A stretch of DNA of 64,000 nt from Planctomycetota bacterium (GTDB taxonomy: Bacteria > Planctomycetota > UBA11346). A model generated the notes under the pieces. It was not told where the DNA came from and did no database searches. It was given only the letters and a program-made list of their open reading frames with translations. Below are positions 23,221-40,980 of this stretch, in pieces. The translations under genes and the position numbers were made by a program. The number at the start of each line of letters is the position of its first letter. The stretch's first letter is position 1. The stretch is taken from NCBI GenBank assembly GCA_038231435.1, contig JBBRLJ010000001.1, positions 287,314-351,313 on the forward strand, written 5' to 3'.

Positions 23221-24525
23221 GTGGCGCGCATCCTCTCGGTCACCGCCTGCTGGCTCCCGGAGCGCATCGACGGCACCATCGTCACCATCGGCCAGCTCGC
23301 GCGGCGCTGGCAGGGGCGCGGCCACGCGGCGCCGGTCTTCTGCCGCCGCCTGGGCTCGTCCGCGCCCATGCCGGTGATCGACGCAGCGCGGCCCACGATC
23401 GTTCGCGAGTCGCTCGCCGGGGTCAGCGTCATCCGCGCCGAAGTACCGTTGCAGCGGCGCTTCGGCGGCGGTCTCGACCATCCGGATGTCGTGAGCCTCT
23501 TCGAACAGGCGATGGACGAGGAGCGACCGGACCTCGTCCACTTCCATCACCTCGAGAACCTGTCCTCGCTGCTGCCCGGACGGGTGGCGGCGCGTGGCTT
23601 GCCGAGCGTGATCACCCTGCACGACTTCCACCTGGTCTGCCCGACCGTGCAGCTGATCGGCAACCATGGCCGTCTGTGCCCGGGTCCGGACGGCGGTCGC
23701 CGCTGCGCCAGCTGCTGGCCAGCGTCAGCGCGCGCGGTGCGCGCGCCAGGAAGTCTGCGCGGGCGGCTGCGCCGGCTCGCCGATGTCGCGCTGCGTAGCA
23801 ACCGGGCAGCCTTCGTCGCCCGCCATGGCGCCGCCGCGGCGACGCTGCGTGGCGGATCGACCCTGGTATCGCCCACGCGATTCGTCGCCGAGACCGTCAC
23901 GCGCATCGCCGAGCTGCCGGCATCAGCCATCGAGGTGATCGGCAACGGCGCCGACGAACGCGCCTCGCCGCGTCCCTGCGCCGCGGGCACGGCGCCGGTG
24001 GTCGGCTTCATGGGTCATCTGCAGCGAGCCAAGGGTCCGCACCTGCTCGCTGCGGCGCTGGCCGGGATCGCTGATCTGCCCTGGAGCCTGCGCGTGCATG
24101 GCGATGGCCCACCAACCTATCGCGACGAGCTGGCGCGCCTGCTGCCCGCCGGCCGGACGACCTGGTCGGGCGCGTATGCGCCCGGAGAAGCCGAGGATCT
24201 GCTCGCGGGCATCGACGTGCTGGTGGTGCCGAGCACCTGGCCCGAGACGTTCTCGCTGGTCACCGCGCAGGCGCTCGCCGCCGGCGTGCCCTGCGTGGTC
24301 GCCGGCTGGGGCGGCCCCGCCGAACTGGTGCGCGATGGCGTCGATGGGCTGCACGTCAAGCCGGGCGACGCAGACGATCTGCGCGAGACCCTGCGCCGCC
24401 TCCTCGGCCAGCCGCGCGCGATTCTCGACCTCGCAGCCGGCGCCGCGGCGCGCCCGCGCCGCACCTGGGACGTGGTCGCTGACGATTATGCGCGGCTGTT
24501 CGCGCGGCTCGGGGTGGCGCTCTAG
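23221..24525 (+). CDS. GT4 glycosyltransferase
   Basis: PDLVHFHH, TLHDFHLVCP, KGPH, PSTWPETFSLV. Confidence 0.88.
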   Translation: MARILSVTACWLPERIDGTIVTIGQLARRWQGRGHAAPVFCRRLGSSAPMPVIDAARPTIVRESLAGVSVIRAEVPLQRRFGGGLDHPDVVSLFEQAMDEERPDLVHFHHLENLSSLLPGRVAARGLPSVITLHDFHLVCPTVQLIGNHGRLCPGPDGGRRCASCWPASARAVRAPGSLRGRLRRLADVALRSNRAAFVARHGAAAATLRGGSTLVSPTRFVAETVTRIAELPASAIEVIGNGADERASPRPCAAGTAPVVGFMGHLQRAKGPHLLAAALAGIADLPWSLRVHGDGPPTYRDELARLLPAGRTTWSGAYAPGEAEDLLAGIDVLVVPSTWPETFSLVTAQALAAGVPCVVAGWGGPAELVRDGVDGLHVKPGDADDLRETLRRLLGQPRAILDLAAGAAARPRRTWDVVADDYARLFARLGVAL

Positions 24526-25553
24526 CCGCTCCCCCGATCAAGGCGCCTGAGCGCGCGCGTGGCGCGGCTGAGCGCGGCGAAACCGCTCCACGCGTTCATC
24601 GCCTTGATGCGGGCGGTACCGTAGAACGGCGCCAGCGCGGCGGTGTAGAGGACCTGTAGCGGCCGCAGCATCCTAGCGAATAGCGGCTCATCCGCGTGGA
24701 TGATGATCCAGTCGAGAGGCCAGCGCAGGAGCAGGTACCACAGCACCAGGGGTATAGGCTCACGGGCGTAGCGCACCTGCTGTTGGACGAGTTCGCGGAT
24801 GATCGCCGTCCCTCCCCGGCTGGTCTTGTTGGTGCCGCTCGTGTACGCGATGCTGAGGACGTCATCGACGCATCGCCACCGCGCACCAGCCTCGCGCAAT
24901 CGGTTCCACAGTTCAGAATCCATCGAATAGTGGAAACGCTCGCGCAACAGCCGATCCACCCGCATAGCCGGTCGGCGGAAGAAGCAGCTGGACTGGGGCA
25001 CCGGATTGAGGTGCGGCATCAGCGCCAGTGTTTCCGCGCTGGCACCGACGATGCTCTCGTCGGCCGATCCCACATCGCGGCGGACGCAGCGTCCGACCAC
25101 CACGTCGACATCGGCTTCAGTGAAGCATGCGCCAACGCGGTCCAGGGCACCGGGAGCGAGGACGTCGTCGCAACACAGCCAGCCGAACACCATCCCGGTC
25201 GCGCGCGCGAAGCCCTGGTTCAGCGCGTGGGATTGGCCGCGATCGGAACGGGAGGACCAGAAATCGATCCATGGAGCGTAGGTGCGCAGCACCTCGACGG
25301 TGCGATCGGTGCTGCCGCCATCGATCACCAGCAATTGGAGATCGGCGTATCCCTGCAGGATGATCGAGCGCAGGCAACGCTCGATGTCCTCGCCCTGGTT
25401 GAACGACGGCACCACCAGCGTGATGCGCGGCAGGCGCTGGTGGTTGGAGGCGCGGGGTCGATCGGCTTCGGTCGCGGCTGGCGTCCATGGCCATCCGCTG
25501 CCGCCTGGCGGTCTTGGCAGCTCCGACACGGTGGGTTTCCGGGATCCTCTCAT
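24522..25553 (-). CDS. GT2 glycosyltransferase
   Basis: PSFNQG, IDGGSTD, DRGQSHALNQG, WLCCDD; ATGA coupling with the upstream gene. Confidence 0.9.
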   Translation of the reverse strand: MRGSRKPTVSELPRPPGGSGWPWTPAATEADRPRASNHQRLPRITLVVPSFNQGEDIERCLRSIILQGYADLQLLVIDGGSTDRTVEVLRTYAPWIDFWSSRSDRGQSHALNQGFARATGMVFGWLCCDDVLAPGALDRVGACFTEADVDVVVGRCVRRDVGSADESIVGASAETLALMPHLNPVPQSSCFFRRPAMRVDRLLRERFHYSMDSELWNRLREAGARWRCVDDVLSIAYTSGTNKTSRGGTAIIRELVQQQVRYAREPIPLVLWYLLLRWPLDWIIIHADEPLFARMLRPLQVLYTAALAPFYGTARIKAMNAWSGFAALSRATRALRRLDRGSG

Positions 25554-26896
25554 GCGCGCCCGCTGAGCGCATCGGCGTACCAATCGATGTAGCTGCCGAC
25601 CATGCGCTCGAGATCGTGCTCCGCCCGGTGGGCCACGGCCGCGGCGGCCATCCCAGATAGGCGCTCTGGAGCGTGCAGCAGGGCGAGCACGGCTTCCGCC
25701 AGCGACTTGGGATCGCGCGGTGGCACCAGCATCCCGGTCACGCCATCACGGATCTGTTCGGGGATCCCGCCTACGGCGGTGCCGACCACCGGTGTGCCAC
25801 AGGCCAAGGCTTCGATCACGGTCGTCGGATAGGTATCCGCCAGGGCGGCGTGGACGTAGAGGTCCGCGGCGCGGTAGTACGCGGCGACGATGCGGCGATC
25901 GTGCTGATAGGGAACGAACAGGATGCCCGCCGGGTCTTCGCCGTGCGTGGCCGCGTCTGCTGTCGAGGACGTGCCCTCGCCCAGTCCGACAAGTAGCGGA
26001 GCCTGGCGCGGATCCGAAACCATCATCGTCAGCGCCGCGCGCAACGTGGCGAAATCCTTGAACTGGTTGGCGCGGATGCCATTCGCCACGAAGAGGATGA
26101 TTTGGCGATCCAGCGGCAGACCCAATTCTCGTCGCGCGGAGTTGCGATCGCCATGGGCGAAGATCGCCAGATCGACGCCATTAGGGATCACCCGCGCCTC
26201 CACCATGGATTCGGCCAGCAGCGATGACCGCGCCATGTCCATGAGCCAGCGCGACGGCGCGGCGATGCGCAGGCGGCAGCGCGCGAGGATGTCGCGCTTG
26301 CGCTTCCAGTTGGCGGCGGTCGCATCGCGGCGGACGGCAGGGTACGTCGACAAGTATGGGCAGCTGCCGCAGCCGCTCGCCCAGCGCTGGCAATCGAAGG
26401 CGTACGCGCAGTGGCCCGACAACAGCCAACTGTCGTGGAGTGTGAGGAACGTCGGCACGCTGGCGCTCAACGTGGGCAATGCGCGCAGGTCGAAATAACC
26501 GCCATGGAGATTGTGGCAATGCAGGATCCGCGGCCGCCACGGCGGCAACGACAGGATATCGGCGGAGCGTGGCGACGAACGGAATTCCTCATGGCCCCGG
26601 AAAGCGTCCCAGCCGCGCAGCGGATGCGCGAGCGCGCGTAGGCCTGAACCCAGCGCGCGGCCAAGCGCGCCCAGGCCTTCGATCGCCGTTCTCGGCTGGA
26701 GCATCCTGGGTTTGGCTCCTGGGATCGCCGACACGAACGGGTCGTTCCCGGTCCTGGTACCGACTGCGGTCCAGCAGGCATGGCCCCGGTCGCGCAATGA
26801 ACCGGCCAAGTCGGAGGCGATGCGCTCGGCCCCGCCGGCGCTGTCCCGGGCGCTGACCTGGAGCACGCGTAATGGTGCCGTGAGCGCGTCAGGCAT
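25550..26896 (-). CDS. GT4 glycosyltransferase (WcaC-like)
   Basis: GGAERIA, HNLHGGYF, TLHDSW..GHC, EALACGTPVV. Confidence 0.9.
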   Translation of the reverse strand: MPDALTAPLRVLQVSARDSAGGAERIASDLAGSLRDRGHACWTAVGTRTGNDPFVSAIPGAKPRMLQPRTAIEGLGALGRALGSGLRALAHPLRGWDAFRGHEEFRSSPRSADILSLPPWRPRILHCHNLHGGYFDLRALPTLSASVPTFLTLHDSWLLSGHCAYAFDCQRWASGCGSCPYLSTYPAVRRDATAANWKRKRDILARCRLRIAAPSRWLMDMARSSLLAESMVEARVIPNGVDLAIFAHGDRNSARRELGLPLDRQIILFVANGIRANQFKDFATLRAALTMMVSDPRQAPLLVGLGEGTSSTADAATHGEDPAGILFVPYQHDRRIVAAYYRAADLYVHAALADTYPTTVIEALACGTPVVGTAVGGIPEQIRDGVTGMLVPPRDPKSLAEAVLALLHAPERLSGMAAAAVAHRAEHDLERMVGSYIDWYADALSGRA

Positions 26897-27707
26897 CGCG
26901 GCCAGCCACGTCGAAGGGTCCCGGTGCCGGCGGCGATGAAGCCGGCGACGTGCCCGAGCTGGCGAGGACCGTGTAGGCGTCGTAGGTGAATTCGTCTGCG
27001 TACCTGCGACCTTTCCTCAAACGGACCAGATGTTTCCTCAGCATGTCCCAACGCAGACGCGTCTCGCTGAACACGTTCCGCCGAACCTGGTGGTTCTGGT
27101 ACGCATCGTAGCGGCGCAGCTCGAGGTCGAGATCGCTGTGGCGATCGGCGACGATGGCGAAACCCTCTGACTTCAGCAGGAAGCGCAGGGTCGAGGGCGT
27201 GAACACGTTGATGTGCCCGTAGGATAGGTAGTGCTCGGCCTGCGTGTCCACTCCGATGCAGTAATCGCAGGGAACCTCGATGACCTGCTGCTTCGAGATG
27301 CGCCTGATCTCGCGCAGGGCGGGGCGCACATGTTCGACGTGCTCGAGCACGTGAGACAGCACGCAGAGGTCGAAGTGCCCATCGGCGAATGACGTGCGAT
27401 AGCCGTCGAAGAGCTCGACCGACGCGAGGCCCGGGATGCGCCACTTGCGGATCGCGTCGACGCCGCTCGGCGATACCTCGAGCGCATGCAGTTCGGAGCC
27501 GATGCCGGCCTCGGCGAGACGCTGGAGGATGCTGCCTTCCCCTGCCCCCCATTCGAGGATCCGCGCGAAGGAGCGGCCGCCACAGAGCGCGAGGATGTTG
27601 CGCGTCTTGCCCGTCGCTCCCAGTTCACGCCAGGGTGTCAGGCCGTCGTGGTACCAGTCATCATAGGCGCGCGACAGGGACGCGTCGATCGACAAGGGTG
27701 TCTTCAT
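26889..27707 (-). CDS. Class I SAM-dependent methyltransferase
   Basis: ILEWGAGEG, FDLCVLSHVLEHV. Confidence 0.88.
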   Translation of the reverse strand: MKTPLSIDASLSRAYDDWYHDGLTPWRELGATGKTRNILALCGGRSFARILEWGAGEGSILQRLAEAGIGSELHALEVSPSGVDAIRKWRIPGLASVELFDGYRTSFADGHFDLCVLSHVLEHVEHVRPALREIRRISKQQVIEVPCDYCIGVDTQAEHYLSYGHINVFTPSTLRFLLKSEGFAIVADRHSDLDLELRRYDAYQNHQVRRNVFSETRLRWDMLRKHLVRLRKGRRYADEFTYDAYTVLASSGTSPASSPPAPGPFDVAGRDA

Positions 27708-28777
27708 CGCGTCAAGCCGATCCGCTGGCACAAGGCCGAGCCGACACGGCCCGCTTTTCCACAAGCGCGGCGCCAGAATCGATCGAGCGGCTCCGCGATC
27801 CTCATCGCGCTCTTGCCGAGGCGATACCATGGCGAATCGAGCAGGCGCCGGATGTCGTCAAGGGGACGCACCTCGATACGCATCGCGCCTGAGGCGACGT
27901 CCGCCATGAGGGCACGCGCCTGCGGCGGATGCTCCCCGGTGAAGCGTTCGAGCCAGCCGGGGAATTCATACACATTGTGCAGGCGGAACGGCCGCGCGAG
28001 GCGCAGGTATTCCTCTTCCGCCCAGCGCAACGCGCCCTCGCGATCGGCCCAGGAAGCCTTGCTGTAGTACTCGCACTTCTCCATCACCTGCTTGGGGAAG
28101 ACCAGGGAATAGTGGTAGAGGAATATCCCCTCGCGAGCGAGCTCGCGGTCCGACAGCCAGCCGCGCCGGCGCAGGTCGATGCCGGAGCCGTCGACGACCG
28201 TGGGCGGGCGATGAGCCGCATAGCGGTAGCCAGGCTGCCAGCGGAACACGCGGTGGAAGGTGTTGCCGCCACGCATGAGGTACCAGCCGTCGACGTACTG
28301 TTCGAACCCGCCCCAGAACTGGATCTGATGGAGCGAGGCCGCCTGCAGCTCGGGGCGCGCGGCGAACAGCTCGAGGATCCGCGCCATGTCGCGCGGGTGG
28401 TAGAATTCGTCGATATCGATCTGCCAAAGGATATCCCCGGTGCAGCGCTCCGCGTACGCCTGGGACATCTCGTCCTTCTCGAGCCAGAAGCCATCCTTGG
28501 TGACGATCTGTATCTTGCCTTGGGGATCCTCGTCGCGAGCGAAGGCGCGCAGGATCTCCAGGGTGCCGTCTCGCGAGTGCCCGTCGGCGGTGGCGATGCC
28601 CGCGGCCGCCGAGCACGCGCCTTCGACGACGATGATCTGATGGGCGAAAGGATACAGCGCGCGCAAGCAATAGCGGGTGAACGGCTCGCCATCGAGGACT
28701 ATGAGGCCGAACGTCACCCGCAATGGCGTGCGTGGCGCTTCACCGGCCAGCGGCGGCGAAGGGAACGGCTCAGCCAT
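27704..28777 (-). CDS. GT2-like glycosyltransferase
   Basis: IIVVEG, SRDGT, WQIDIDEFY (DxD motif). Confidence 0.8.
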   Translation of the reverse strand: MAEPFPSPPLAGEAPRTPLRVTFGLIVLDGEPFTRYCLRALYPFAHQIIVVEGACSAAAGIATADGHSRDGTLEILRAFARDEDPQGKIQIVTKDGFWLEKDEMSQAYAERCTGDILWQIDIDEFYHPRDMARILELFAARPELQAASLHQIQFWGGFEQYVDGWYLMRGGNTFHRVFRWQPGYRYAAHRPPTVVDGSGIDLRRRGWLSDRELAREGIFLYHYSLVFPKQVMEKCEYYSKASWADREGALRWAEEEYLRLARPFRLHNVYEFPGWLERFTGEHPPQARALMADVASGAMRIEVRPLDDIRRLLDSPWYRLGKSAMRIAEPLDRFWRRACGKAGRVGSALCQRIGLTR

Positions 28778-29489
28778 GGGCGCCTCCCGCCGGAGCCTGC
28801 CGCGCGGCGATCCAGGCCGGCTCGGCATAGAAGCACGACTTGAAGGTCTTGGCGAAGAGCACGTAGCCCAGGCTCGCGAGGTGGGAGCTGATCTGGTTTT
28901 CCGATACCATGGCGATGCTCGCGAGCGCGCATTCGGCGATCACGATGCGCGGCCGGAAGCGTGCCCAATCGTTCGAGCGCAGCACGTCGAGGTCGCGCCC
29001 CTCGGCGTCGACGCTCAGGAAGTCTATGGTCGCACCGGCGGGCAGATGGCGATCCAGCAAAACGGACAATGGCTGCTGCGGCACGACCACCGAGCTGGTT
29101 ATGTGGTAGCGGTGGTTTTCCTGGCCCTTCGCCACCCGTTCGTCGAAGGTGTTGAGCGCCGGTTCGTTGAACAGGAAGAACCTGCACTCGCCGGCGTGCT
29201 CGGCGACGCCGCATTCGATGTTCACGTCGCGTGGTCTTGACTTCGAGAATGCGGCCATGCTGCCAGGGGTGGCATCGATGTTGATGCCGCGCCAACCACG
29301 CTGGTAGAAGAGCCAGGTGTTGGAGAACCGGTGGGGATGATGGGCACCGACATCCACATAGAATCCGCTTTGCTGTTCGCCGAAGATGCGGCCCAGCACG
29401 AGGTCCTCCCCCTCCTGCGCGTACGAAGGCGTGCTGAATCGCGCGGTGCGCCTGCGCTTCAGGAAGGCCCTGATATTGGGGATGCGCAT
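28770..29489 (-). CDS. FkbM-family methyltransferase
   Basis: YAQEGED, FYVDVGAHHP, GWRGINID, IDFLSVDAEG; AGGAGG RBS. Confidence 0.92.
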   Translation of the reverse strand: MRIPNIRAFLKRRRTARFSTPSYAQEGEDLVLGRIFGEQQSGFYVDVGAHHPHRFSNTWLFYQRGWRGINIDATPGSMAAFSKSRPRDVNIECGVAEHAGECRFFLFNEPALNTFDERVAKGQENHRYHITSSVVVPQQPLSVLLDRHLPAGATIDFLSVDAEGRDLDVLRSNDWARFRPRIVIAECALASIAMVSENQISSHLASLGYVLFAKTFKSCFYAEPAWIAARQAPAGGAHG

Positions 29490-29652
29490 CACCATCCTCC
29501 TTCGCGGTTGCGTGAGCCATCGTACATGGAGGAGAGACGAGGACGGATGGAGGATGCTCGCTCGTCGGCCTCCGCCCGCTCCATGCGCATCGTCTCGTGC
29601 AAGGCCAGCCCACGGCCGAGCAGCAGGATGTCGCGGGCCGCCGACGACACCT

Positions 29653-31419
29653 TCATGCGGGCTCCGTCTCGCTAGGCGTTGCTGGGGCGTGGGCATCCGG
29701 CTGCACACGGTTCAGCCCCGCGAGATCGATGACCTCGTCCACGCGGGCGCGGATCCAGGGGTCATGGGTGACGAAGATGACGATCCTGTTGTGATATGAC
29801 CCGAGGATGCGCTCGACGAGCGCATCGCGGGTCTCGCGGTCGAGGGAGGCGGTGGCCTCGTCCAGGATCAGGACATCCGCTTCGCGCACCAGCGCCCTGG
29901 CGATGCCGATGCGTTGGCGCTGCCCGCCGGAGAGGTTGGCTCCCTGGTAATTGAGGCGGGTGTCGTAGCCCGCGGGAAGCGCGGCGATGAACGGAGCGAT
30001 GCACGCCGCCTCGGCGGCGGCGCGCACGCGAGCGTCCGTGGTGGTGGCGCCGAAGGAGATGTTGGTCATCACCGTATCGTTGAAGATGGTCGTCTGCTGC
30101 CCGAGCAGGACCACGCGCTCGCGCAGCGAGCGCAGGCTCACGCGCTCGATCGGCATGCCATTGATCGAAATCGATCCAGCGTCCACGCGGCGCAGACCCA
30201 GGAGGAGATCCAACAGGGTCGATTTTCCGCATCCGGAAGGCCCGACGATGGCGTACGACCGGCCGGCGCGCAACGCGATGCTCACGCCATCCAGGACCGG
30301 TGCCCTTCCAGGGTACGAGAACCCCACGCCGGTGAGTGCGATCTCCGTGACTGGACGCCCGAGGACGGTGCTTCCGTCCCAGCCCCCAGCAGGCTCGTCG
30401 AGCAGCCCGGTCATGTCCCGTCCGGCCTTGGCATCGGCGACGATCCGCAGCGACACGTTCAGACATTGGCCGATGACCGGGAAGAAGCGCAGCAGCAGGA
30501 ACAGGAGCGTCGCGGCGAAGGCCAGATCAACAGAGCCGTCGGCCGGAGCCCAGATCAGCATCACCACGGCGAACAGCGCCAACAGGCATGCCGCCGGGGC
30601 GGAGCGGGCCATGGTGTTGATGGCATCGATCGTGAACAGCACGCGTGTGTAGCTGTGAATGGCGGCTCGATGTGCGAGACTCACGTAGTGCTCACCGGAA
30701 AATGCGCGCACCGAGCGCACTCCATTCAGGGAATCCAGCAGAATCGATCCCGCTTCGCCCTGCAACTCGGTACGTCGCGCACCGAGCCGATCGGTGGCGC
30801 GAAACGCTCGCAGCAGGATCAGCAGCGACAGGCAGAGCAGGCACGACACCATCAGGCAGGCGGCTGGGGAATACCAAGCAATGGCGAGGAAGTACACGCC
30901 GGCGAGCGCCGCGGCCGACAGCCACTGGCCGAGGTTCTCAACCACCGATCCGGCCCGAGCCGATTCATCGCCGGTCAAGGTGATATAGTAACCGATGCTC
31001 TTGTCTTCGATCTCCTTGAGGCTGAAATCGCGGATGATGCGATCGAATGCGATCGCCGACAGCTGGGTCTGCACGCATTTCCCGATATGGTTGGAAAGCA
31101 TGTGGCTGCCTAGTTGCGTGATCAGCCGGGCCAACAGCACCAGAGCGAAGAGCACCAGCAGGTTTTTCATGTCCGGCCGAATCCCGATCGCGAGCAGCAC
31201 GGTCGGCAGACGGTCTCCGGCAGGGATCTTCTGCCCGGATACAATCAGGGATGCGTAATAGACTGATCCCATCGCCACCAGCTCGGCGACCAGCGACATC
31301 GCCACGATGATCGAGCCGGCGTACATCAGCGGATTGCGCGCGAAGGCGAAACGCAGCAGCCTCAGCAGGTAGTGCGCGCTCCTGGCGGTGGCGCTCGCCG
31401 GATGGGTCGGCTCGGTCAT
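29653..31419 (-). CDS. ABC transporter, fused permease-ATPase (glycan flippase-like)
   Basis: TM domain plus GPSGCGKST, LSGGQRQR, ILDEAT; located within the glycan cluster. Confidence 0.9.
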   Translation of the reverse strand: MTEPTHPASATARSAHYLLRLLRFAFARNPLMYAGSIIVAMSLVAELVAMGSVYYASLIVSGQKIPAGDRLPTVLLAIGIRPDMKNLLVLFALVLLARLITQLGSHMLSNHIGKCVQTQLSAIAFDRIIRDFSLKEIEDKSIGYYITLTGDESARAGSVVENLGQWLSAAALAGVYFLAIAWYSPAACLMVSCLLCLSLLILLRAFRATDRLGARRTELQGEAGSILLDSLNGVRSVRAFSGEHYVSLAHRAAIHSYTRVLFTIDAINTMARSAPAACLLALFAVVMLIWAPADGSVDLAFAATLLFLLLRFFPVIGQCLNVSLRIVADAKAGRDMTGLLDEPAGGWDGSTVLGRPVTEIALTGVGFSYPGRAPVLDGVSIALRAGRSYAIVGPSGCGKSTLLDLLLGLRRVDAGSISINGMPIERVSLRSLRERVVLLGQQTTIFNDTVMTNISFGATTTDARVRAAAEAACIAPFIAALPAGYDTRLNYQGANLSGGQRQRIGIARALVREADVLILDEATASLDRETRDALVERILGSYHNRIVIFVTHDPWIRARVDEVIDLAGLNRVQPDAHAPATPSETEPA

Positions 31420-31420
31420 G

Positions 31421-33184
31421 CTACGTCCGTTCCATGGCCGCGGTCGGGTCGGCAAAGGCGGCGAGCTTGTGCAGCAGGGGGCCATCGGTTCCGCCCACGG
31501 ACAAGGCTGAGACCAGGCGCGCGGCCTCCGATCTCAGCCCGGCAGTCTCCTCGGCCAGGTCCAAGCCACGGTCGGCCGCTTCGGCGGCATCCTTGCCATC
31601 GCGACCCGCAACGATGATCGCAGCGATGCGCTCGGCTTCGCGGAGGTGGCGAGGGCGCAGCCACGCATCGATCACCTGACCAGGAGCATCCATCCATGGG
31701 CGCATGGCCTTCTCGACGGCGCGAAGTAGCGGAGGCCGGGGGCGATCGCGATCGGGGATCGCTTCGGCGATCGAAAACAGGCCGCCCCCATGTTCGAGCG
31801 CGAACCAGCGATAGGCAGCCCGCATGCGCTCCTCGCTCCATCCCTGGTCGAGCGCTTCATCGATGTGCGCGAGGTACGCCTCGATGCCACCGCCGCAGAG
31901 ATTGAGGTCGGCGGGATAGTACAGCAACCCCGCCGAGTAGGACACGACCGGCAGACCGAGCAGGGCCATCTCGACGCCGGCGCTCGACCAGGCGTTGAGG
32001 AACACGTCGGCATGCTTCGCCAGGTCGTACAGGGAGACGCCATCCGACGGCCAGTTGACGTGGCAGTTGTCCGGCAGATCGCTCAGCGCGGCGTGGAGCT
32101 GGCGGGCGTGCTCGGAATGCACAGGGTCCCGCCGGTTCGGCAGCTCTCGGGGGTGGACGCGGATGATCAGCGCGAGATCGCGGCGCGTCGCGACGAGGGC
32201 GACCAATGCCCGCACCCACTCCAATTGGGTTGGGAAGAGCGGGTCCGCGGGCTGATCGATGGCCCCGATGACCTCGGCGGCGAAGCGCTCGTCATAGCTG
32301 CTCATCGTGGCCACCAGCAGGCGTTGGCCAGGCGCGACGCTGAAGCGGGAGCGGACGTCGGCATCCCCTCCCGCCATCGGTGTAGAATACACGAAGACGC
32401 TGCTGCCCTGGAACAACCTGAGGAGATGGTCGGTGACGCGCGACAGAGAGAGTGCGGAGCATGGCCAGTCGCGGACCTCGGGCCAGAGCTTCGAGATGTT
32501 GCGCGCCGAGTACGCGCTGGTCATGCCCTTGGTCAGCATCAGCGTCTGCAGACGGTTGGAGAGGTTGCCGCCGGCATGGATCGTGTAGTAGGCGATCCCG
32601 CGCAGCTGGGCGTAGCGGCAGCAGACGTGGTTCACGCCGTAGAGGGAATTGTAGCACAGCACGCGGTCGAATTGCGCGTCCGCGAAAACACGGCGGCACG
32701 CGAACAGCACGCTGAGCGCATTGCGGATGTAGATCAGGCAGCGTGGCCATTCCTCGTCGGTGAAGTCGCAGCTGGTCTTCTTCGCGTGCAGGAGCGGCTC
32801 GTACAGGGCGAGCCGCGCGACCTCGATGCCGTCGACCACCAGCTCCAGCGGCCGCGAGCGCTCGACCGTCGCCATCAACGCCGCGATGTCGCGGTCGTCG
32901 GCGGGCGTGAGGCGCTCGTCGATGTCGAACCCGTCGAAACCGAAACGATGGCGGATCAGCCGCTTTGCCGAGACGCAGGCTCGGCAGACCTCGGCCTTGT
33001 CGGCCGCGCTCGCTGCTGGCGAGATACCGCGCGCGCTCATCGCCGTGCAGTGGGCAGACAACCGGGTCCCGCAGGTGACATAGGTGATCTCGTGTCCTGA
33101 ACGCTGTAGGGCCTCGGCGACCAGCGCCTCGGGAAACGAGTGCGCCCAGACAGCGGCATGAGGGGCGAAGACCAGGATCCTCAT
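31421..33184 (-). CDS. Capsule polysaccharide biosynthesis/modification protein (Capsule_synth-like)
   Basis: IIRVHPRE HP motif, WSSAGVEMALLGLPVV; cluster context. Confidence 0.65.
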   Translation of the reverse strand: MRILVFAPHAAVWAHSFPEALVAEALQRSGHEITYVTCGTRLSAHCTAMSARGISPAASAADKAEVCRACVSAKRLIRHRFGFDGFDIDERLTPADDRDIAALMATVERSRPLELVVDGIEVARLALYEPLLHAKKTSCDFTDEEWPRCLIYIRNALSVLFACRRVFADAQFDRVLCYNSLYGVNHVCCRYAQLRGIAYYTIHAGGNLSNRLQTLMLTKGMTSAYSARNISKLWPEVRDWPCSALSLSRVTDHLLRLFQGSSVFVYSTPMAGGDADVRSRFSVAPGQRLLVATMSSYDERFAAEVIGAIDQPADPLFPTQLEWVRALVALVATRRDLALIIRVHPRELPNRRDPVHSEHARQLHAALSDLPDNCHVNWPSDGVSLYDLAKHADVFLNAWSSAGVEMALLGLPVVSYSAGLLYYPADLNLCGGGIEAYLAHIDEALDQGWSEERMRAAYRWFALEHGGGLFSIAEAIPDRDRPRPPLLRAVEKAMRPWMDAPGQVIDAWLRPRHLREAERIAAIIVAGRDGKDAAEAADRGLDLAEETAGLRSEAARLVSALSVGGTDGPLLHKLAAFADPTAAMERT

Positions 33185-33798
33185 GCCGATTCCGGCCGAG
33201 CAGGCTTGACGGACGCGGCTTCCGCCGGAACGGACATCAGCGACGCCACGACGTACTTCTTCTCGAGATTACGCACGATCGCCCGCTCGGCGGGGATGAT
33301 CTGCAGGACTCCTTCGCAGCCCGCGGCGGCGAGATCGGCGATGGCGATGCGCGGTGTCTCGAGTGCCGCGGCTTCCTCGACCGTCGCGTCGATGACGCCG
33401 ATCAGCCGTTGTCCGTTCTCTCGCAGAGACAGCGCGGCGATCTCGGCCAGCGGGCCACCGCCGAGAAAGGCCACCCGGGCCACTCCCGAACGCGCCATCG
33501 AATGGAGCGCGTTCGAGGCGTTGCGATGCGCCTCGCGGTAGAGCCGGTAATTGCTGGTGACGAACTCGAGCACCAGCCGGCTCTTTTCGGTCATGCCTTT
33601 CGGCGTGAGCCAGTAGCGCATGCGCTTGGCTGGCGCGGTGGTGAGCTTGATCCATCCCTTAGCGGCGAGGAGCTTCAGATAGCGGTTCACCAGGCCCTGG
33701 GCCATGTCCAGCCGCAGGAAGATGTCGCGTTGCGAAAGTCCCCGCTCCTCGGACAGGAGCTGGGCGATCTGCAGCAGCTTCTGGTCAGGTGCTTTCAT
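33181..33798 (-). CDS. EPS-associated MarR-like winged-helix regulator with C-terminal Rossmann-like domain
   Basis: SQRD..LDMAQGLVNRYLK, YWLTPKGMTEKSRL. Confidence 0.85.
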   Translation of the reverse strand: MKAPDQKLLQIAQLLSEERGLSQRDIFLRLDMAQGLVNRYLKLLAAKGWIKLTTAPAKRMRYWLTPKGMTEKSRLVLEFVTSNYRLYREAHRNASNALHSMARSGVARVAFLGGGPLAEIAALSLRENGQRLIGVIDATVEEAAALETPRIAIADLAAAGCEGVLQIIPAERAIVRNLEKKYVVASLMSVPAEAASVKPARPESA

Positions 33799-33831
33799 GG
33801 GTTTTCACCGGGGACACCGTACGTTAGCGAT

Positions 33832-33872
33832 GTTCACCCAGTGAACGTTAGTCCGCCCGACGCCAGGTTCAA
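33832..33872 (-). promoter_or_regulatory. Putative sigma70 promoter (TTGAAC-16-TAACGT) overlapped by the palindrome GTTCAC-CCA-GTGAAC
   Basis: Inverted repeat at 33832-33846, directly upstream of the MarR gene. Confidence 0.6.
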
Positions 33873-34003
33873 GCCGGGCCTGGGGCGCCGGCTTGTGGCA
33901 GGTTCCTCGGTAGTACGCTCGATCCATGCGACCCGAGGTACGTCCCTGGCCAGCCCGCGGAAACGCGCCGAAGCGTTCCGGAACCCGGTTCTGCTGAGCG
34001 CGC

Positions 34004-34819
34004 GTGCCCGCGATCGCCTTCCTCATCCCGAGCAAGAACCGCCACGAGAGCCTGGCCAGGACGCTCCGTCTGGTCGCTCGCTGCGTCGGGCCAGGCGACG
34101 AGATCCTGGTGTGCGACCAGTCGCCGACCCCGTTCCCAGCCCACGGATGCGCCGATGGACGCGCGCGCGTCCTGCACCGGCCGGATCTGTCCGGTCTGCC
34201 CGCCGCGCGCAACGCGCTGCTGGCAGCGGCCTCGGCGGACATTGCCTGCTTCCTCGACGACGACACCGATCTCGCCGCTGATTTCGCCGCGCGCCTGCGC
34301 GGTCTCGCGGTGGCCGAACCCGAGGTCTGCGGCTGGGGGCCGGTGGTCGAATGCCGGAGCCGCGATGTCCGCCGCCTGCATCGGCTCGCTCATCTCGGGG
34401 TATTCCATGATCCGCGACGGTTGCTGGCCAGACGCCGCGACCAGGACACCAGCGCATTGTACGGATGCTGCTTCGCCGTCCGGCGCGCCGAGGCGGCTCG
34501 CGTCAGATTCGATGCGCGCCGGCCCGGCTACGCGCTCGGCGAGGATCTGGATTTCTTCCTGCGCCTGCGCCGTCCGCTGCGCTTCACGCGCGCGCTGCGC
34601 GCGATTCATCGCAAGGATGGCGGGGATCGCGCGGATCCGGACGCGCGCGGCGTCGCCAAGGCACGCTTCCTGATCTGGCTGGCGCGTCGTCATGGTGGCC
34701 GGAATCCACTCACCCTGGCGCATCTGCTGCTCGCGCTGGCGGTGGCGGCGAGCCAGCGCGGCGACGAGCCGGGCTCGGCTCGCGGCGTTCTCCGCGGCGT
34801 CGCCGCGTGGCTGGGATGA
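34004..34819 (+). CDS. GT2 glycosyltransferase
   Basis: IPSKNR, ARN, FLDDD, GEDLDF. Confidence 0.85.
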   Translation: MPAIAFLIPSKNRHESLARTLRLVARCVGPGDEILVCDQSPTPFPAHGCADGRARVLHRPDLSGLPAARNALLAAASADIACFLDDDTDLAADFAARLRGLAVAEPEVCGWGPVVECRSRDVRRLHRLAHLGVFHDPRRLLARRRDQDTSALYGCCFAVRRAEAARVRFDARRPGYALGEDLDFFLRLRRPLRFTRALRAIHRKDGGDRADPDARGVAKARFLIWLARRHGGRNPLTLAHLLLALAVAASQRGDEPGSARGVLRGVAAWLG

Positions 34820-34853: not shown

Positions 34854-35414
34854 TCACTCCACTGGATGGCTTTTCTCGCGGATCGCGGCGAATAGCTTAG
34901 CGAGCTTCGCCGCGAGTTCGCGGTCATCGAGCAGCACCGAGAGCTCGCGGTTGTGACCGAGCGCCGCGGCCGTCCAGTTGGTGGAGCCGATGACGCACCA
35001 ACGACCGTCCACCACCAGCGCCTTGTCGTGGGTGGTGCGATCGTCCTCGTCCCACCTGACGTCGATGCCCTTGCTCGCGAGGTACGCGGCGGCGTTGGCG
35101 CTCGGCCGCTCGACGCCTTCCTCGGGGGTGCCTGCGTCGACCACCAAGCTCACCGCCACGCCAGCCTGGTGACGGGCCACCAGGCGGTCGAGCAGCACCC
35201 GCACCGGATGGGTTGGCCGGGCATCCACGGGCAGGTTCACCTGGTACATGACGACGTCGATCGACGTCTGGGCAGCGTCGATGAGCGCCGACACCCGTGG
35301 CCCATACGCCTTGTCGGTGAGCAACTGCGGTCCCGCTACCCCCTCCTCGGCCACTGCCGATCGGAATCCCAGAGTCGCCAGGACCAGCGCCAACACGATT
35401 GATCGGATGCTCAT
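34854..35414 (-). CDS. Secreted phospholipase D-like protein (single HKD, Nuc-like)
   Basis: HDKALVVD...GSTNWT...NRE; signal peptide. Confidence 0.88.
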   Translation of the reverse strand: MSIRSIVLALVLATLGFRSAVAEEGVAGPQLLTDKAYGPRVSALIDAAQTSIDVVMYQVNLPVDARPTHPVRVLLDRLVARHQAGVAVSLVVDAGTPEEGVERPSANAAAYLASKGIDVRWDEDDRTTHDKALVVDGRWCVIGSTNWTAAALGHNRELSVLLDDRELAAKLAKLFAAIREKSHPVE

Positions 35415-35516
35415 GCTCAGAGCTTGCCGACACCACCCGGCCGGCAATGCGCCTCCCAAGGCCTCCATACCACCGAGCATCAACAAGATCAGCTGAGCCG
35501 CACCCCCAACGCCCTA

Positions 35517-35687: not shown

Positions 35688-35742
35688 TGCCCTAAATCCT
35701 TTGAGCGTAATTGGCTGAGCCCGTCCTCAAGCGAAAACCGGC

Positions 35743-35771
35743 TTGAAAAGGACGGTTTCGACTCCTATGCT
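35743..35771 (+). promoter_or_regulatory. Putative sigma70 promoter TTGAAA-17-TATGCT for the pgi-like operon
   Basis: Near-consensus hexamers with a 17-nt spacer, ~135 nt upstream of the ATG. Confidence 0.55.
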
Positions 35772-35906
35772 CGCAGCCCACCAATTATCACCGGTGCGCA
35801 CGGCCGCCTCGATGGACCGGTAGACGACGTTCGATGAGGTCCGGCTCGACCTCCTGCTCGCTCGCTCTGCTGACAAGTCACGGCCCCGCGAGCACTTGGA
35901 GCGCGC

Positions 35907-37301
35907 ATGAGCCTCAATCTCGACTTCACCAACTGCCTCGCCGAAGCGATCGGCGCGACGCACGGCTTGACCAAGTCCGAAGTCGACACCCTGGTGGCCA
36001 AGTTCCCCAAGCATCACGAGAACATCGAGGAGCTGCGCACCAACGGCGAGAGCGCCTTCTTCGATCTCCCCTACCAGAACACCGCCGAGCTCAAGGCGCT
36101 GGTGAAGAAGCACCAGGGCATGTGGGACAACCTGGTGATCATCGGCACCGGCGGCAGCCTGATCGCCGCCAAGAGCCTGTTCACGGCCCTGGGCCATGGC
36201 GAGTTCAACCAGCAGGAGGCCAAGGAGCGCAAGGGCGCCCCGAAGGTGTTCTTCCTGGCGAATCCAGATCCGAAGGGCCTGAGCGATCTGTTCGAGATCG
36301 TGGACATCAAGAAGACCCTCTTCCAGGTGATCAGCAAGTCGGGCACCACGGTCGAGACCCTGGCGATCTTCATGTGGCTGCAGGAGGTCCTCAAGAAAAA
36401 GTGCGGCAAGGGCGCGCTCACCGCCCAGGTGGTGATCACCACCGATCGCGAGAAGAGCTCGCTCGCCGAGATCGCCAAGCAGGAGAAGATCGAGACGCTC
36501 AACATCCCCGGCAATCTCGGTGGGCGTTTCGGCGTGCTCGGCAACGCCGGTCTGTTCCTCGCCGGCATGTGCGGATTCAACGTGGACGCCTTGCTCAAGG
36601 GCGGCGCCGACATGGACAAGCGCTGCCGCCACGGCGACCCGCACAAGAATCCGGCCTACATGCACTCGCTGGTGCACTACCTGCTGACGCGCAAGCGCCG
36701 CAAGACCATCCACGTGATGTTCAGCTTCAACAACCGCCTCTATGGCGTCGCCGAATGGTACTCGCACCTGTGCGCGGTCTCGCTCGGCAAGATGCTCAAC
36801 CGCAAGGGCAAGGCCGTGCACGTCGGCCCGTCGCCAGCGGCGGCGCTCGGCACCTTCGACCAGCACGGCCAGCAGCAGCTCTATGCCGAGGGCCCGTTCG
36901 ACAAGGTGGTCACCTTCCTGACCGTCAAGGATCACGGCCCCAAGATCGCCACCCCGGCCGCGTATCCGAAGATCGAAACCGCAGCGTACCTCAATGGTGC
37001 CGATTTCGCCACCATCCTCGATCACGGCTATCTCGGCGCCGAGCAGCACATCACCGCCAGCGGTCGCCCGAACATGGCGATCCACCTCGACACCGTCGAC
37101 GAGGCGCACGTGGGCGGCCTCTACTACATGCTCGAGCTCTCGACCACCATGAGCGCCGAGCTGTACGGCATCGACCCGTTCGACCAGCCAGGCGTCGAGC
37201 ACGGCAAGCAGGCGACGTTCGCCCAGTTCGGACGCGCCGGCTTCGAGGATCTCGCGAAGAAGCTCAAGGACTACCGCACCAAACCGCGCAGGACCTGCTA
37301 A
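35907..37301 (+). CDS. pgi: Glucose-6-phosphate isomerase homologue; catalytic Glu apparently substituted
   Basis: GTGGS, SKSGTTVET, GGRF, DQH, DPFDQPGVEHGK present; the QL.AESLGK motif reads HLCAVSLGK. Confidence 0.85.
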   Translation: MSLNLDFTNCLAEAIGATHGLTKSEVDTLVAKFPKHHENIEELRTNGESAFFDLPYQNTAELKALVKKHQGMWDNLVIIGTGGSLIAAKSLFTALGHGEFNQQEAKERKGAPKVFFLANPDPKGLSDLFEIVDIKKTLFQVISKSGTTVETLAIFMWLQEVLKKKCGKGALTAQVVITTDREKSSLAEIAKQEKIETLNIPGNLGGRFGVLGNAGLFLAGMCGFNVDALLKGGADMDKRCRHGDPHKNPAYMHSLVHYLLTRKRRKTIHVMFSFNNRLYGVAEWYSHLCAVSLGKMLNRKGKAVHVGPSPAAALGTFDQHGQQQLYAEGPFDKVVTFLTVKDHGPKIATPAAYPKIETAAYLNGADFATILDHGYLGAEQHITASGRPNMAIHLDTVDEAHVGGLYYMLELSTTMSAELYGIDPFDQPGVEHGKQATFAQFGRAGFEDLAKKLKDYRTKPRRTC

Positions 37302-37325
37302 CCCGGGACCTGTCAGGAGTACACC

Positions 37326-38501
37326 GTGTTCAACGCCCTCCAGGGGTTCTTGTCAGACCACCGCGGCCTGCTCGTCCTCGCGACGATCATCGCGTGGATG
37401 TGGTTCGTATGGGCGCTGAAGAAGCACCTGACGCCTCCGGCCACGGCCATCGCCGGTCCGGGCCAGGCACGCATGCCGACGCGCGGGCAGCTCGGGGCAA
37501 ACCGCAAGCCGGGCGACATCGTGCCCCAGCAGCGCACCTCCACCGGCGGCCTGGCACCGGCCATCGAGGCCGGCATGGCCGAGCACCACGTGCGCAGTGC
37601 GGCGGCCACCGCCAAGCTGCTGGTGCCCCCGACCGAGCCGAAAGCCAAACCGACCGAATCGCTCAAGTCCATCAAGACCCCCCCTCCGCCGACCCCCGAT
37701 CAGCTGAAATCCGCGGGCCGCGAACTCCCTGGCGCCCGTCCGACCAGCACCAGCGGCGATCGCACCGTGACCGAGGCCGACGCCATGGAGGGGCTGTTCT
37801 CCGGCCTCAAGGGCAAGCGCGAAGCCTCAGAGGCCGCTCCTGACGCTGATGAACGCAGCGGCGATACCGATACCCTCGACCCCAAGGCGCTGCGCCCGGG
37901 CACCAGCGTGATCAAGCGGGTGAACCGGCTCGAGGAGATCGGCTTCCACCACCAGATCCCGAGCGACAAGCTGCCCGCCCAGTCTCCGCCCGCCCCCGGT
38001 ACGACCTTCACTCCGTCCACGCCGTCACCCTCGATCGATCCACCGAAGCCTCGCACCCAATCAGCCGAACTCGACGACATCCTCAAGCGCATCGACAAGG
38101 TGCTCGCCGACAGCCCGACCACCAAGCCCTCCGAGCGCCTGGCCGCCAAGCCCGCCGAGCCCCAGCCGCCAGCGAAGTCCGAATCCTCGGCCAAGCTCGA
38201 CCCGAGCGACGTGCTCAAGCGCATCGACCAGGCGCTGGCCGAGAGCCAGGGCAGCAACGCCGCTGAAGTGACGATGATGGATCCCGACTGGGCCGACGAA
38301 GCCCAACGCGCCGCCACCGCCGACGTCCCCGCCAAGCCGGTGGCCGGTCCAGCGACAACGCCCGCCGCCGCCAAGCCCGCCGACCCGGCGAAACCCGCCG
38401 CCCCGAAGATCCCCGACTGGGCCCGCTCCGACATCCAGGACGAAGACCTGGACAAGAAGGACGACAGCGACGGCAAGGGCGGCCAGCAAAAATTGTTTTA
38501 A
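37326..38501 (+). CDS. Membrane-anchored Pro/Ala/Lys-rich, largely disordered hypothetical protein
   Basis: N-terminal TM helix; repeated D[IV]LKRID..LA helix; AGGAG RBS before the GTG start. Confidence 0.8.
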   Translation: MFNALQGFLSDHRGLLVLATIIAWMWFVWALKKHLTPPATAIAGPGQARMPTRGQLGANRKPGDIVPQQRTSTGGLAPAIEAGMAEHHVRSAAATAKLLVPPTEPKAKPTESLKSIKTPPPPTPDQLKSAGRELPGARPTSTSGDRTVTEADAMEGLFSGLKGKREASEAAPDADERSGDTDTLDPKALRPGTSVIKRVNRLEEIGFHHQIPSDKLPAQSPPAPGTTFTPSTPSPSIDPPKPRTQSAELDDILKRIDKVLADSPTTKPSERLAAKPAEPQPPAKSESSAKLDPSDVLKRIDQALAESQGSNAAEVTMMDPDWADEAQRAATADVPAKPVAGPATTPAAAKPADPAKPAAPKIPDWARSDIQDEDLDKKDDSDGKGGQQKLF

Positions 38502-40173: not shown

Positions 40174-40980
40174 TCAGCGTTGCTTGGACGGCTTGCGCGG
40201 CTTCTCAGCGGAAGGGCGGGCGTAGTACGATGTCCCCTCGTCCTCGTCGTCCTTCACCACCGGGTAGGCCGGACCGACGTAGAGATCCTCCTCGCCGCTG
40301 CCCGTCTGGGCGGGAAGCAGGGCGCTGTCCAGCAGCGGATCGCGATAGCTGGTGTCGGTCTCGCTGTCGCGCTTCTCGAGCGCGGCGGATCCTGGTTCTT
40401 TGCTGGTCTTCGACGCGCTCGCGGAAGCGCCCGAGGCAGGTACGGCGGCGGTGAACGAATCCGGCCTGCGCATGGTCAGTCGGTGGACGCTCAAGTTCAC
40501 CTGCACCGCGGTCTGCTCGGGCATGAGCTCGGCGAAGCGGCGGCGCAGCAGGCGCTGGCAGAAGCGGTTGCGGTCGGTGACGTTGGGCACCTCCCACAGC
40601 GTCATCACCGCTTCGATCACCACCGCGCGCTTCACGCGATCCTCGAACACGCGCACGTGCGCCTTCTTGACCTCCGGCTCGCCCTCGATCGCGCGCGTCA
40701 ACGCCTCTTCGACCGCGATCAGGCTCACAGAAATGCGGCCATTCTCGGTCTGATAGCTGATCTCACGTGCCCTGCGCATGACCTGCGCCCAGCGCAGCAG
40801 GATGGCCAGCGGGCTGAGCAGCAGGGTCACGGCGAGCCCGGACGCGACCAGGCGGCCGCTCTCGGTCTTGAGGTAGTCCGACATCACGTCGATCAGCGAC
40901 GGCCAAAAATTGTTGGCCACCAGGAGACCGCCGACCGCCATGGCGGCGACGTACATGAACATGCGCAGAGCAGCCCGCAT
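40174..40980 (-). CDS. AmaP/Asp23-like membrane protein
   Basis: Two TM helices followed by TENGRISVSLIAVEE..RA..EVKKAHVRV, resembling the Asp23-type fold. Confidence 0.6.
   Translation of the reverse strand: MRAALRMFMYVAAMAVGGLLVANNFWPSLIDVMSDYLKTESGRLVASGLAVTLLLSPLAILLRWAQVMRRAREISYQTENGRISVSLIAVEEALTRAIEGEPEVKKAHVRVFEDRVKRAVVIEAVMTLWEVPNVTDRNRFCQRLLRRRFAELMPEQTAVQVNLSVHRLTMRRPDSFTAAVPASGASASASKTSKEPGSAALEKRDSETDTSYRDPLLDSALLPAQTGSGEEDLYVGPAYPVVKDDEDEGTSYYARPSAEKPRKPSKQR

Follow-up and report, generated by a model that had tools for sequence, protein, structure and literature searches.

The window, the whole 64,000-nucleotide stretch of planctomycete DNA that was analyzed, carries a gene for a protein with the fold of phosphoglucose isomerase (PGI), preceded by a conserved promoter element and followed by a second gene, F1, on the same strand. 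We call the first product pseudo-PGI, after the reading of it that we favor. The main features of the locus are as follows.

35694..35771, plus strand: conserved upstream element, from orthologue leaders and pattern scans
35704-35709, minus strand: AGCGTA, its TA at a fixed distance, from conservation
35725-35731, plus strand: CCTCAAG box, followed after 11-12 bp by CTTGAAA
35743-35748, plus strand: TTGAAA of the -35-like CTTGAAA, sigma-70-like site
35766-35771, plus strand: TATGCT, -10-like, sigma-70-like site
35898-35901, plus strand: GGAG, ribosome-binding site of pseudo-PGI, from sequence
35907..37301, plus strand: putative PGI-fold pseudoenzyme of the short (Thermotoga/Bacillus) type, from sequence and fold comparison
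37326..38501, plus strand: F1, 391 aa, beginning 24 bp after the pseudo-PGI stop, from the open reading frame and its conservation
38484-38498, plus strand: QQKLF at the C terminus of F1, resembling a beta-clamp-binding motif

The pseudo-PGI frame translates into 464 aa with no internal stop and has a GC content of 0.60/0.39/0.92 by codon position, in agreement with a first-pass annotation of this DNA that had described a full-length frame with strong third-position GC bias. An overlapping 669-aa frame (35834-37843), for which Pfam gave no match, and the antisense frames were rejected as shadow ORFs; the codon bias fits the PGI frame. PF00342 is the only Pfam match in the protein, covering residues 74-435 at 99.4 bits against a cut-off of 22, and the same search detected no helix-turn-helix domain. 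Pseudo-PGI aligns end to end with the Thermotoga PGI 2q8n (E 4e-72), and its predicted model (pLDDT 93.6, built from 113 aligned sequences) superposes on that structure with Z 51.1, an rmsd of 1.8 over 446 aligned residues, 36% identity and TM 0.89. The small SIS domain, the large domain, the hook and the C-terminal arm are all present in the model, so that the PGI fold spans residues 1-464. The NCBIfam equivalog cut-offs were missed (PRK03868, 259 versus 487; PRK14097, 254 versus 443), a result of little weight because intact Planctomycetota PGIs were not scored, and the score for the bifunctional PGI/PMI family TIGR02128 was 27 bits against a cut-off of 213.9. The ESM Atlas returned only ordinary PGI clusters, and a plasmid collection held no match at 1e-100.

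Departures from PGI are concentrated in the features of the sugar-phosphate pocket, listed here with their state among the near-full-length orthologues described below.

36144..36158, plus strand: GTGGS, canonically GIGGS, from the motif; Ser84 missing in 40/114 orthologues
36333..36359, plus strand: phosphate loop SKSGTTVET, complete in this protein; in the clade it drifts, with Thr/Ser148, Gly146 and Glu150 kept
36765..36779, plus strand: His287 (Gln in PGI) and Val291 (catalytic Glu in PGI), from alignment to 2q8n and clade counts
36864..36866, plus strand: His320, the ring-opening His, present here; missing in 30/114 orthologues by at least 5 changes

The segment EWYSHLCAVSLGK of pseudo-PGI aligns against WYRQLWAESLGK of 2q8n, which puts Val291 (GTC, 36777-36779) where PGI has its catalytic Glu and His287 (CAC, 36765-36767) where it has a conserved Gln, four residues before the Glu. 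According to one report (PMC9436075), the equivalent residues in wheat cytosolic PGI are Gln356 and Glu360, Glu357 is the base catalyst and His388 opens the ring in mouse PGI, and mutants of the Glu are seriously impaired in activity. The same source has the catalytic Glu and Gln also holding sugar hydroxyls, the phosphate held by four Ser/Thr side chains and backbone amides, and the Lys of the phosphate loop contacting phosphate through its backbone. The first-pass annotation had recognized both substitutions and the role of the Glu as general base, along with GGRFG, an intact phosphate loop, the Arg, the His of DQH and the C-terminal Lys; GGRFG, SKSGTTVET, DQH and Lys434 are indeed present. 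Two further changes in pocket motifs were not on its list, GIGGS to GTGGS and DQHS to DQHG. All eight other pocket side chains (Ser84, Ser143, Ser145, Thr148, Arg207, His320, Gln427 and Lys434) are kept in this protein. Set against what an active EC 5.3.1.9 enzyme has, pseudo-PGI thus lacks the Glu (Val291) and the Gln (His287) and retains His320, Lys434 and Arg207. A substitute acidic base was sought and rejected: at the sequence level, no newly conserved Asp or Glu lies on the 276-293 helix.

The loss is a fixed property of a large group of proteins. A homologue search gave 2383 matches among 8000 scored candidates, and the best 120 all belonged to one group (47-100% identity, most near 464 aa). 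Together with two proteins from a profile search these form the clade of 122 members, picked by similarity and not by residue 291, and the 154 nearest PGIs (146 profile matches and 8 genome loci) were taken as the outgroup. Position 291 is Val in 121 clade members, Ala in one and Glu in 0 of 122, against Glu in 153/154 outgroup PGIs; position 287 is His in 120/122 and Gln in the other 2/122. The earlier proposal that the protein does not isomerize by the normal mechanism is strengthened by these counts, and normal isomerization now appears very unlikely.

Among the 41 genomic loci that cover the site (of 43), Val291 is encoded by GTC in 27, GTG in 11, GTT in 2 and GTA in 1. The gene is present in 45/48 genomes of the class, which consists of a single family, including 7/7 of those at least 90% complete, and no class match contains a stop. 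Of 10 pairs compared, 8 gave dN/dS values of 0.03-0.19; a distant pair gave 0.37, and for the last the ratio was undefined. Because the Glu is absent in 122/122, all four Val codons are in use and dN/dS is low, the substitution is not a lesion. A sequencing error, a recent lesion or a decaying pseudogene, which would also have to account for the same change in orthologues 47-88% identical and for a conserved promoter, can practically be dismissed, and the earlier claim that the protein is maintained holds.

Records with titles place the clade within the phylum: 41/43 bear Planctomycetota-lineage names (including six anammox-lineage labels, taken as given) and 2/43 read only "bacterium." In a sample of 301 phylum genomes, class members scored at least 740 bits and the next best 463. 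Short-type PGIs were found in 124/283 non-class genomes of that sample (E 1e-60), and the best 13 of those 124 all keep Gln and Glu. The nearest sequence relatives of the clade are intact short-type PGIs, many from other Planctomycetota, and two quick trees grouped the pseudo-PGIs together as a single clade (SH-aLRT 100), with short branches inside it and a stem of 0.82-0.94 changes per site leading to it. Degenerate active sites also occur in three unrelated short-type PGIs, P0219 (no Glu), P0250 (no His or Lys) and P0170 (no Gln or Lys), possibly as independent losses.

A second, canonical pgi is present in the same genome. It is of the long type, lies on contig C23 (G000:C23, L001:1354-3042) and has all motifs intact. 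Long-type PGIs occur in 47/48 class genomes, with intact motifs in 30/30 loci inspected, and glycolysis is covered by this enzyme. The short and long types are about 23% identical, which argues against a recent duplication. Because intact short types are widespread in the phylum, we infer that the short type was the older resident and that the long type replaced it. Among the matches listed, relatives of the long-type PGI included Isosphaeraceae/Tautonia PGIs (about 70%) and a plant PGI (61%).

Constraint on pseudo-PGI has moved, and the segments to which it has moved are these.

35919..36020, plus strand: residues 5-38, strand and helices at the N terminus that belong to the newly invariant surface, from rates
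36657..36713, plus strand: residues 251-269, YMHSLxHYLLTRKRRKTxH, core of the invariant basic patch, from conservation and rates
36792..36830, plus strand: residues 296-308, MLNRKGKAVHVGP, invariant basic hairpin, from conservation and rates
37137..37178, plus strand: residues 411-424, LSTxMSAELYGIDP, invariant helix end that covaries with 251-269 and 296-308, from conservation, rates and covariation
37296..37298, plus strand: C-terminal Cys464, kept in 117/119, from conservation

Changes at each site were counted on trees for the clade (114 proteins) and the outgroup (142 proteins) and divided by the mean of the respective group. The phosphate site changes at 0.96 in the clade versus 0.13 in the outgroup, GIGG at 0.82 versus 0.05 and the DQHS loop at 0.57 versus 0.03, while six sugar-side positions change at 0.19 of the clade mean. 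The patch segments, defined from the same alignment as the rate comparison, behave in the opposite way: residues 5-38 at 0.32 in the clade versus 1.32 in the outgroup, 251-269 at 0.14 versus 1.21, 296-308 at 0.08 versus 1.11 and 411-423 at 0.21 versus 0.95. HYLLTRKRRKT, KAVHVGP and SAELY are nearly or fully invariant in the clade, there is no Lys/Arg exchange in TRKRRK among 120 sequences, the median net charge is +5 against -6 in the outgroup, and at 30/63 newly fixed positions the outgroup has mostly polar residues. Selection is now, to judge from these rates, mainly on a new outer surface.

The named motifs of this surface are HYLLTRKRRKT, NRKGKAVH and MSAELY together with the N-terminal helices, and by the published layout of the short Bdellovibrio PGI (PMC8354745) the segments fall in the large domain. 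In outgroup covariation (154 sequences), 7/60 top pairs join different patch segments where 1.8 are expected (binomial p 0.002, from a shallow alignment and with segments chosen afterwards); these are 261-420, 37-251, 253-412, 299-418, 251-415, 266-331 and 9-389, and the analysis also recovers expected strand neighbors. The simplest reading is that the invariant segments join into a single basic patch, partly exposed and set apart from the old active site. Pseudo-PGI also has unusually many invariant His residues (19, 36, 37, 242, 253, 257, 269 and 305), and with the terminal Cys464 a metal site is possible.

The eight other pocket side chains are all kept in 43/114 near-full-length orthologues versus 132/143 outgroup PGIs, and at least six of them in 109/114. 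Losses among the 114 affect Ser84 in 40, His320 in 30, Lys434 in 5 and Arg207 in 2, each by more than one change, and Ser84, Ser143 and Ser145 have each changed at least 8 times in the clade. Across the clade, retention stands at 119/121 for Arg207, 115/120 for Lys434, 117/118 for Thr/Ser148, 114/118 for Glu150 and 90/121 for the ring-opening His; the phosphate-loop Lys has become Arg in 77/118, and His287, Val291 and Gly321 (117/121) are new and fixed. Five members are down to 2-5 of the 8 side chains and yet agree with the patch at 45-47 of its 47 positions; in P0092, six of the eight are gone and the patch matches at 47/47. Arg207 and Lys434 are both missing in P0116 and P0120. Residual binding of an anion by the pocket is possible, because 109/114 orthologues keep at least six side chains, this protein keeps all eight and the sugar-side positions are slow.

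The upstream element bears out the earlier remark that the gene has a good candidate promoter. TTGAAA-17-TATGCT at 35743-35771 was found once where 0.2 were expected in shuffles, and a sigma-70-like site occurs in 21/40 orthologue leaders versus 0/41 coding controls. Most relatives have a third CTTG box 11 bp beyond CTTGAAA, which is degenerate in this genome. The minus-strand TA suggests a back-to-back promoter; the element has back-to-back TTGA boxes, and the minus-strand TA and GGxTTT persist even where the upstream gene is codirectional. The larger pattern, CAAG-N11/12-CTTGAAA-N2-CRCTTG, which was built from these loci, matches once in 29/48 genomes and 0 times when reversed. Of these matches 27/29 lie 65-757 bp upstream of the pseudo-PGI gene on the same contig, one precedes the gene start at a contig end, and the remaining one, in a genome with no detected pseudo-PGI, looks like chance. 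The best-scoring site in this genome is the one upstream of pseudo-PGI, and one site per genome would fit a dedicated or self-made regulator.

Other roles for the element were considered and rejected. A replication origin is not indicated, since the GC skew does not switch at the site and the scanned stretch contains no DnaA boxes; a multigene regulon is not, with one strong site in this genome, no enrichment of the palindrome spacing and, in five relatives, 1-3 matches each to the right half of the element versus 0-2 in the reversed control. A LexA box is not indicated either, no such element being seen by eye upstream of the genome's lexA, and a search for known RNAs gave nothing at gathering level near the gene.

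F1 combines an N-terminal hydrophobic helix, a Pro-rich low-complexity body, short conserved motifs and a Q..LF tail. Neither Pfam nor NCBIfam matched it, and the ESM Atlas returned nothing reliable. It was found in 45/48 class genomes, and a short 69-aa probe gave no match in 143 non-class genomes. Of the 43 genomes showing both genes, 29 have it at most 1.5 kb downstream of pseudo-PGI on the same strand; among the other 14, some loci end at a contig edge and others truly separate the two. F1 is predicted to be a membrane-anchored, disordered protein; it appears specific to the class, of which it is a core gene in its own right.

The Q..LF tail is present in 28/32 complete F1 frames with a recognized core motif and reads QLDLF in L068 and L070; the beta-clamp consensus is given as QL(S/D)LF in PMC9690074. 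Binding to the clamp is a reasonable reading of the tail. Of the 4051 ORFs called in this genome, 5 end in such a tail where 1.9 are expected: F1, RuvB, an SRAP protein, an RNase_H_2 protein and one 639-aa ORF. RuvB (G000:C24:963, minus strand; L143:67-1356) ends in QQKLF, as F1 does, and the tails of the SRAP protein (L142), the RNase_H_2 protein (L141) and the 639-aa ORF (L144), which has no Pfam match, are similar. A predicted complex of the pseudo-PGI dimer with residues 196-265 of F1 only, its other motifs being left out, scored 0.01, a value that counts neither for nor against binding.

We consider it probable, with real room for doubt, that the protein is a pseudoenzyme derived from short-type PGI that no longer isomerizes and acts through its new basic outer surface. 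In this model the long-type PGI would have carried glycolysis in the class ancestor; the changes Glu to Val and Gln to His would then have removed the catalytic base of the short-type copy, constraint on its sugar-phosphate pocket would have relaxed, and the outer face of its large domain would have acquired a fixed basic patch. A PGI-like dimer, expected from the family, would present two symmetric copies of the patch to one specific acidic or polyanionic partner. The fold, the residue loss, the retention of the gene, its redundancy with an intact PGI and the shift of constraint are direct observations; the dimer, the inactivity, the contiguity and exposure of the patch and the order of events are inferred. 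Counting against this reading, Arg207, Lys434, Thr/Ser148 and Glu150 are mostly kept, and His287 and Val291 are themselves fixed. The partner may well be a protein, for example a replication factor or F1, the membrane-anchored protein with the clamp motif encoded alongside; it could plausibly be a nucleic acid, including the single-copy promoter element of the operon itself, which the two basic patches of the dimer might read; a lipid, polyphosphate or self-assembly seems rather unlikely.

The first-pass annotation had proposed that the protein probably still binds glucose 6-phosphate or fructose 6-phosphate and is a regulator or an enzyme with altered chemistry. Its binding residues are intact here, but only 43/114 orthologues keep all eight and the phosphate site drifts at the clade average, which weakens the claim of binding. 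A sugar-phosphate sensor of the GKRP kind, in which the old pocket would bind one of these sugars or another ligand without turnover and its occupancy would control binding by the patch, draws on that retention and on GKRP itself as a structural relative (PDB 3w0l; Z 16.6, rmsd 6.0, 356 aligned, 11% identity); the loop Lys reaches phosphate through its backbone in the source cited above, so its exchange for Arg need not matter. Repeated changes at Ser84, Ser143 and Ser145, repeated loss of the ring-opening His, the five members with at most five pocket residues and a near-perfect patch, and the loss of a Glu and a Gln that in PGI also hold sugar hydroxyls (again by that source) leave this a minority possibility, weaker than first proposed. 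It overlaps with the pseudoenzyme reading, since ligand binding could persist in a lineage in which the essential work falls to the patch.

Distinctly unlikely, in our judgment, is an enzyme of altered chemistry, in which His287, one turn before the old Glu, would act as a new acid/base with Arg207 and Lys434 on another, perhaps open-chain, substrate that needs no ring-opening His. The fixation of His287, Val291 and Gly321, the general retention of Arg207 and Lys434, and glycosyltransferase or glycogen phosphorylase genes upstream at some loci are in its favor; adaptation to a new substrate would be expected to hold the remaining pocket constant, but drift is seen at positions 81, 84, 143-145, 206, 209 and 318-320, P0116 and P0120 lack both basic residues, the 276-293 helix has gained no conserved acidic residue and the upstream neighbors vary between genera. 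That pseudo-PGI is a slow but ordinary isomerase with a substitute base is very improbable: a fully kept fold, a PF00342 score above cut-off and several public records that call orthologues glucose-6-phosphate isomerase are set against a base absent in 122/122, a ring-opening His absent in 30/114 and an intact PGI in 47/48 genomes.

Phosphoglucose isomerase is a textbook enzyme for which many second jobs have been reported. Pseudo-PGI shares the whole fold, length and domain order of short-type PGIs (PF00342; Thermotoga maritima TM1385, PDB 2q8n; PRK03868, PRK14097) and differs from them in the replaced Glu and Gln, the relaxed pocket, the new invariant basic surface and the separate intact PGI alongside. 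GKRP is a double-SIS noncatalytic regulator, eukaryotic and with a tight sugar-phosphate site, whereas the phosphate site of the pseudo-PGI clade drifts. The RpiR-family regulators (MurR, NanR, RccR and HexR), which match at Z 8-10 through their SIS domains, reuse a noncatalytic SIS domain in regulation with a separate helix-turn-helix domain, of which none was detected here. Moonlighting PGIs such as autocrine motility factor and a Lactobacillus adhesin use their surfaces in noncatalytic binding, and Azotobacter PGI assembles into a decamer (PMC8354745; bioRxiv 2025.02.04.636493); these are described as enzymes with a second role, whereas in pseudo-PGI the enzyme role is apparently lost and the second role fixed class-wide.

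DiaA of Escherichia coli and HobA of Helicobacter pylori are described (PMC4697000) as GmhA-derived SIS folds with the catalytic Glu replaced that bind DnaA. Like pseudo-PGI they are sugar-isomerase folds from an enzyme whose catalytic Glu has been replaced, and HobA appeared in the fold search (Z 9.0, 157 residues aligned); they are single-SIS tetramers (a domain of about 190 aa) from another enzyme family, whereas pseudo-PGI is a full 464-aa PGI. By analogy, pseudo-PGI is most like DiaA/HobA or the GKRP/RpiR sensors and a member of none of these groups. There are hints of a DiaA/HobA-like role in chromosome biology, because the gene usually precedes the clamp-motif membrane protein F1 behind a conserved single-copy promoter element. 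It is conceivable, though we think it unlikely, that pseudo-PGI and F1 work together as a module peculiar to the class, tethering the chromosome or the replication machinery to the membrane or setting when it acts. A sugar isomerase would then have been recruited for chromosome control independently a second time, DiaA/HobA being the first case, and in a planctomycete lineage whose one searched genome gave no FtsZ match; the link to F1, if true, would bear on the coordination of the planctomycete chromosome and cell cycle.

Among the papers listed in searches of an open full-text library, which is short of most subscription journals, none deals with a PGI lineage that is catalytically dead. 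The gene studied here, near-universal in its bacterial class, displays the whole pattern of redundancy, base loss, pocket decay and a frozen new surface, probably as an old metabolic enzyme reused as a binding protein. The frozen residues can be named and mutated, which opens a defined route to studying the cells of an uncultured planctomycete class, and the annotation of the many orthologues labeled glucose-6-phosphate isomerase is corrected.

The upstream neighbors of pseudo-PGI differ by genus. Here, a PLDc_2 (phospholipase D-like) gene at 34854-35486 (minus strand) is divergent from pseudo-PGI, and it occupies the same place in 5 to 7 scanned loci. The glycosyltransferases, methyltransferases, ABC exporter and MarR-like regulator encoded at 24522-34819 probably form a cluster for surface polysaccharide synthesis. 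Elsewhere in this genome, which is 88% complete, there are two DnaA-family genes (G000:C63:16814-17287 and G000:C13:93495-93962; L116, L117) and no match to the FtsZ family. In some genera (L062, L064, L066 and L071) a small membrane protein gene lies between the promoter element and pseudo-PGI, and three of these four loci have a methyltransferase gene after pseudo-PGI. At 40174-40980 (minus strand), next to purM, is a gene for a membrane protein with a weak AmaP-like NCBIfam match (36 bits against a cut-off of 55), the cytoplasmic domain of which is nearly invariant in 8 loci.
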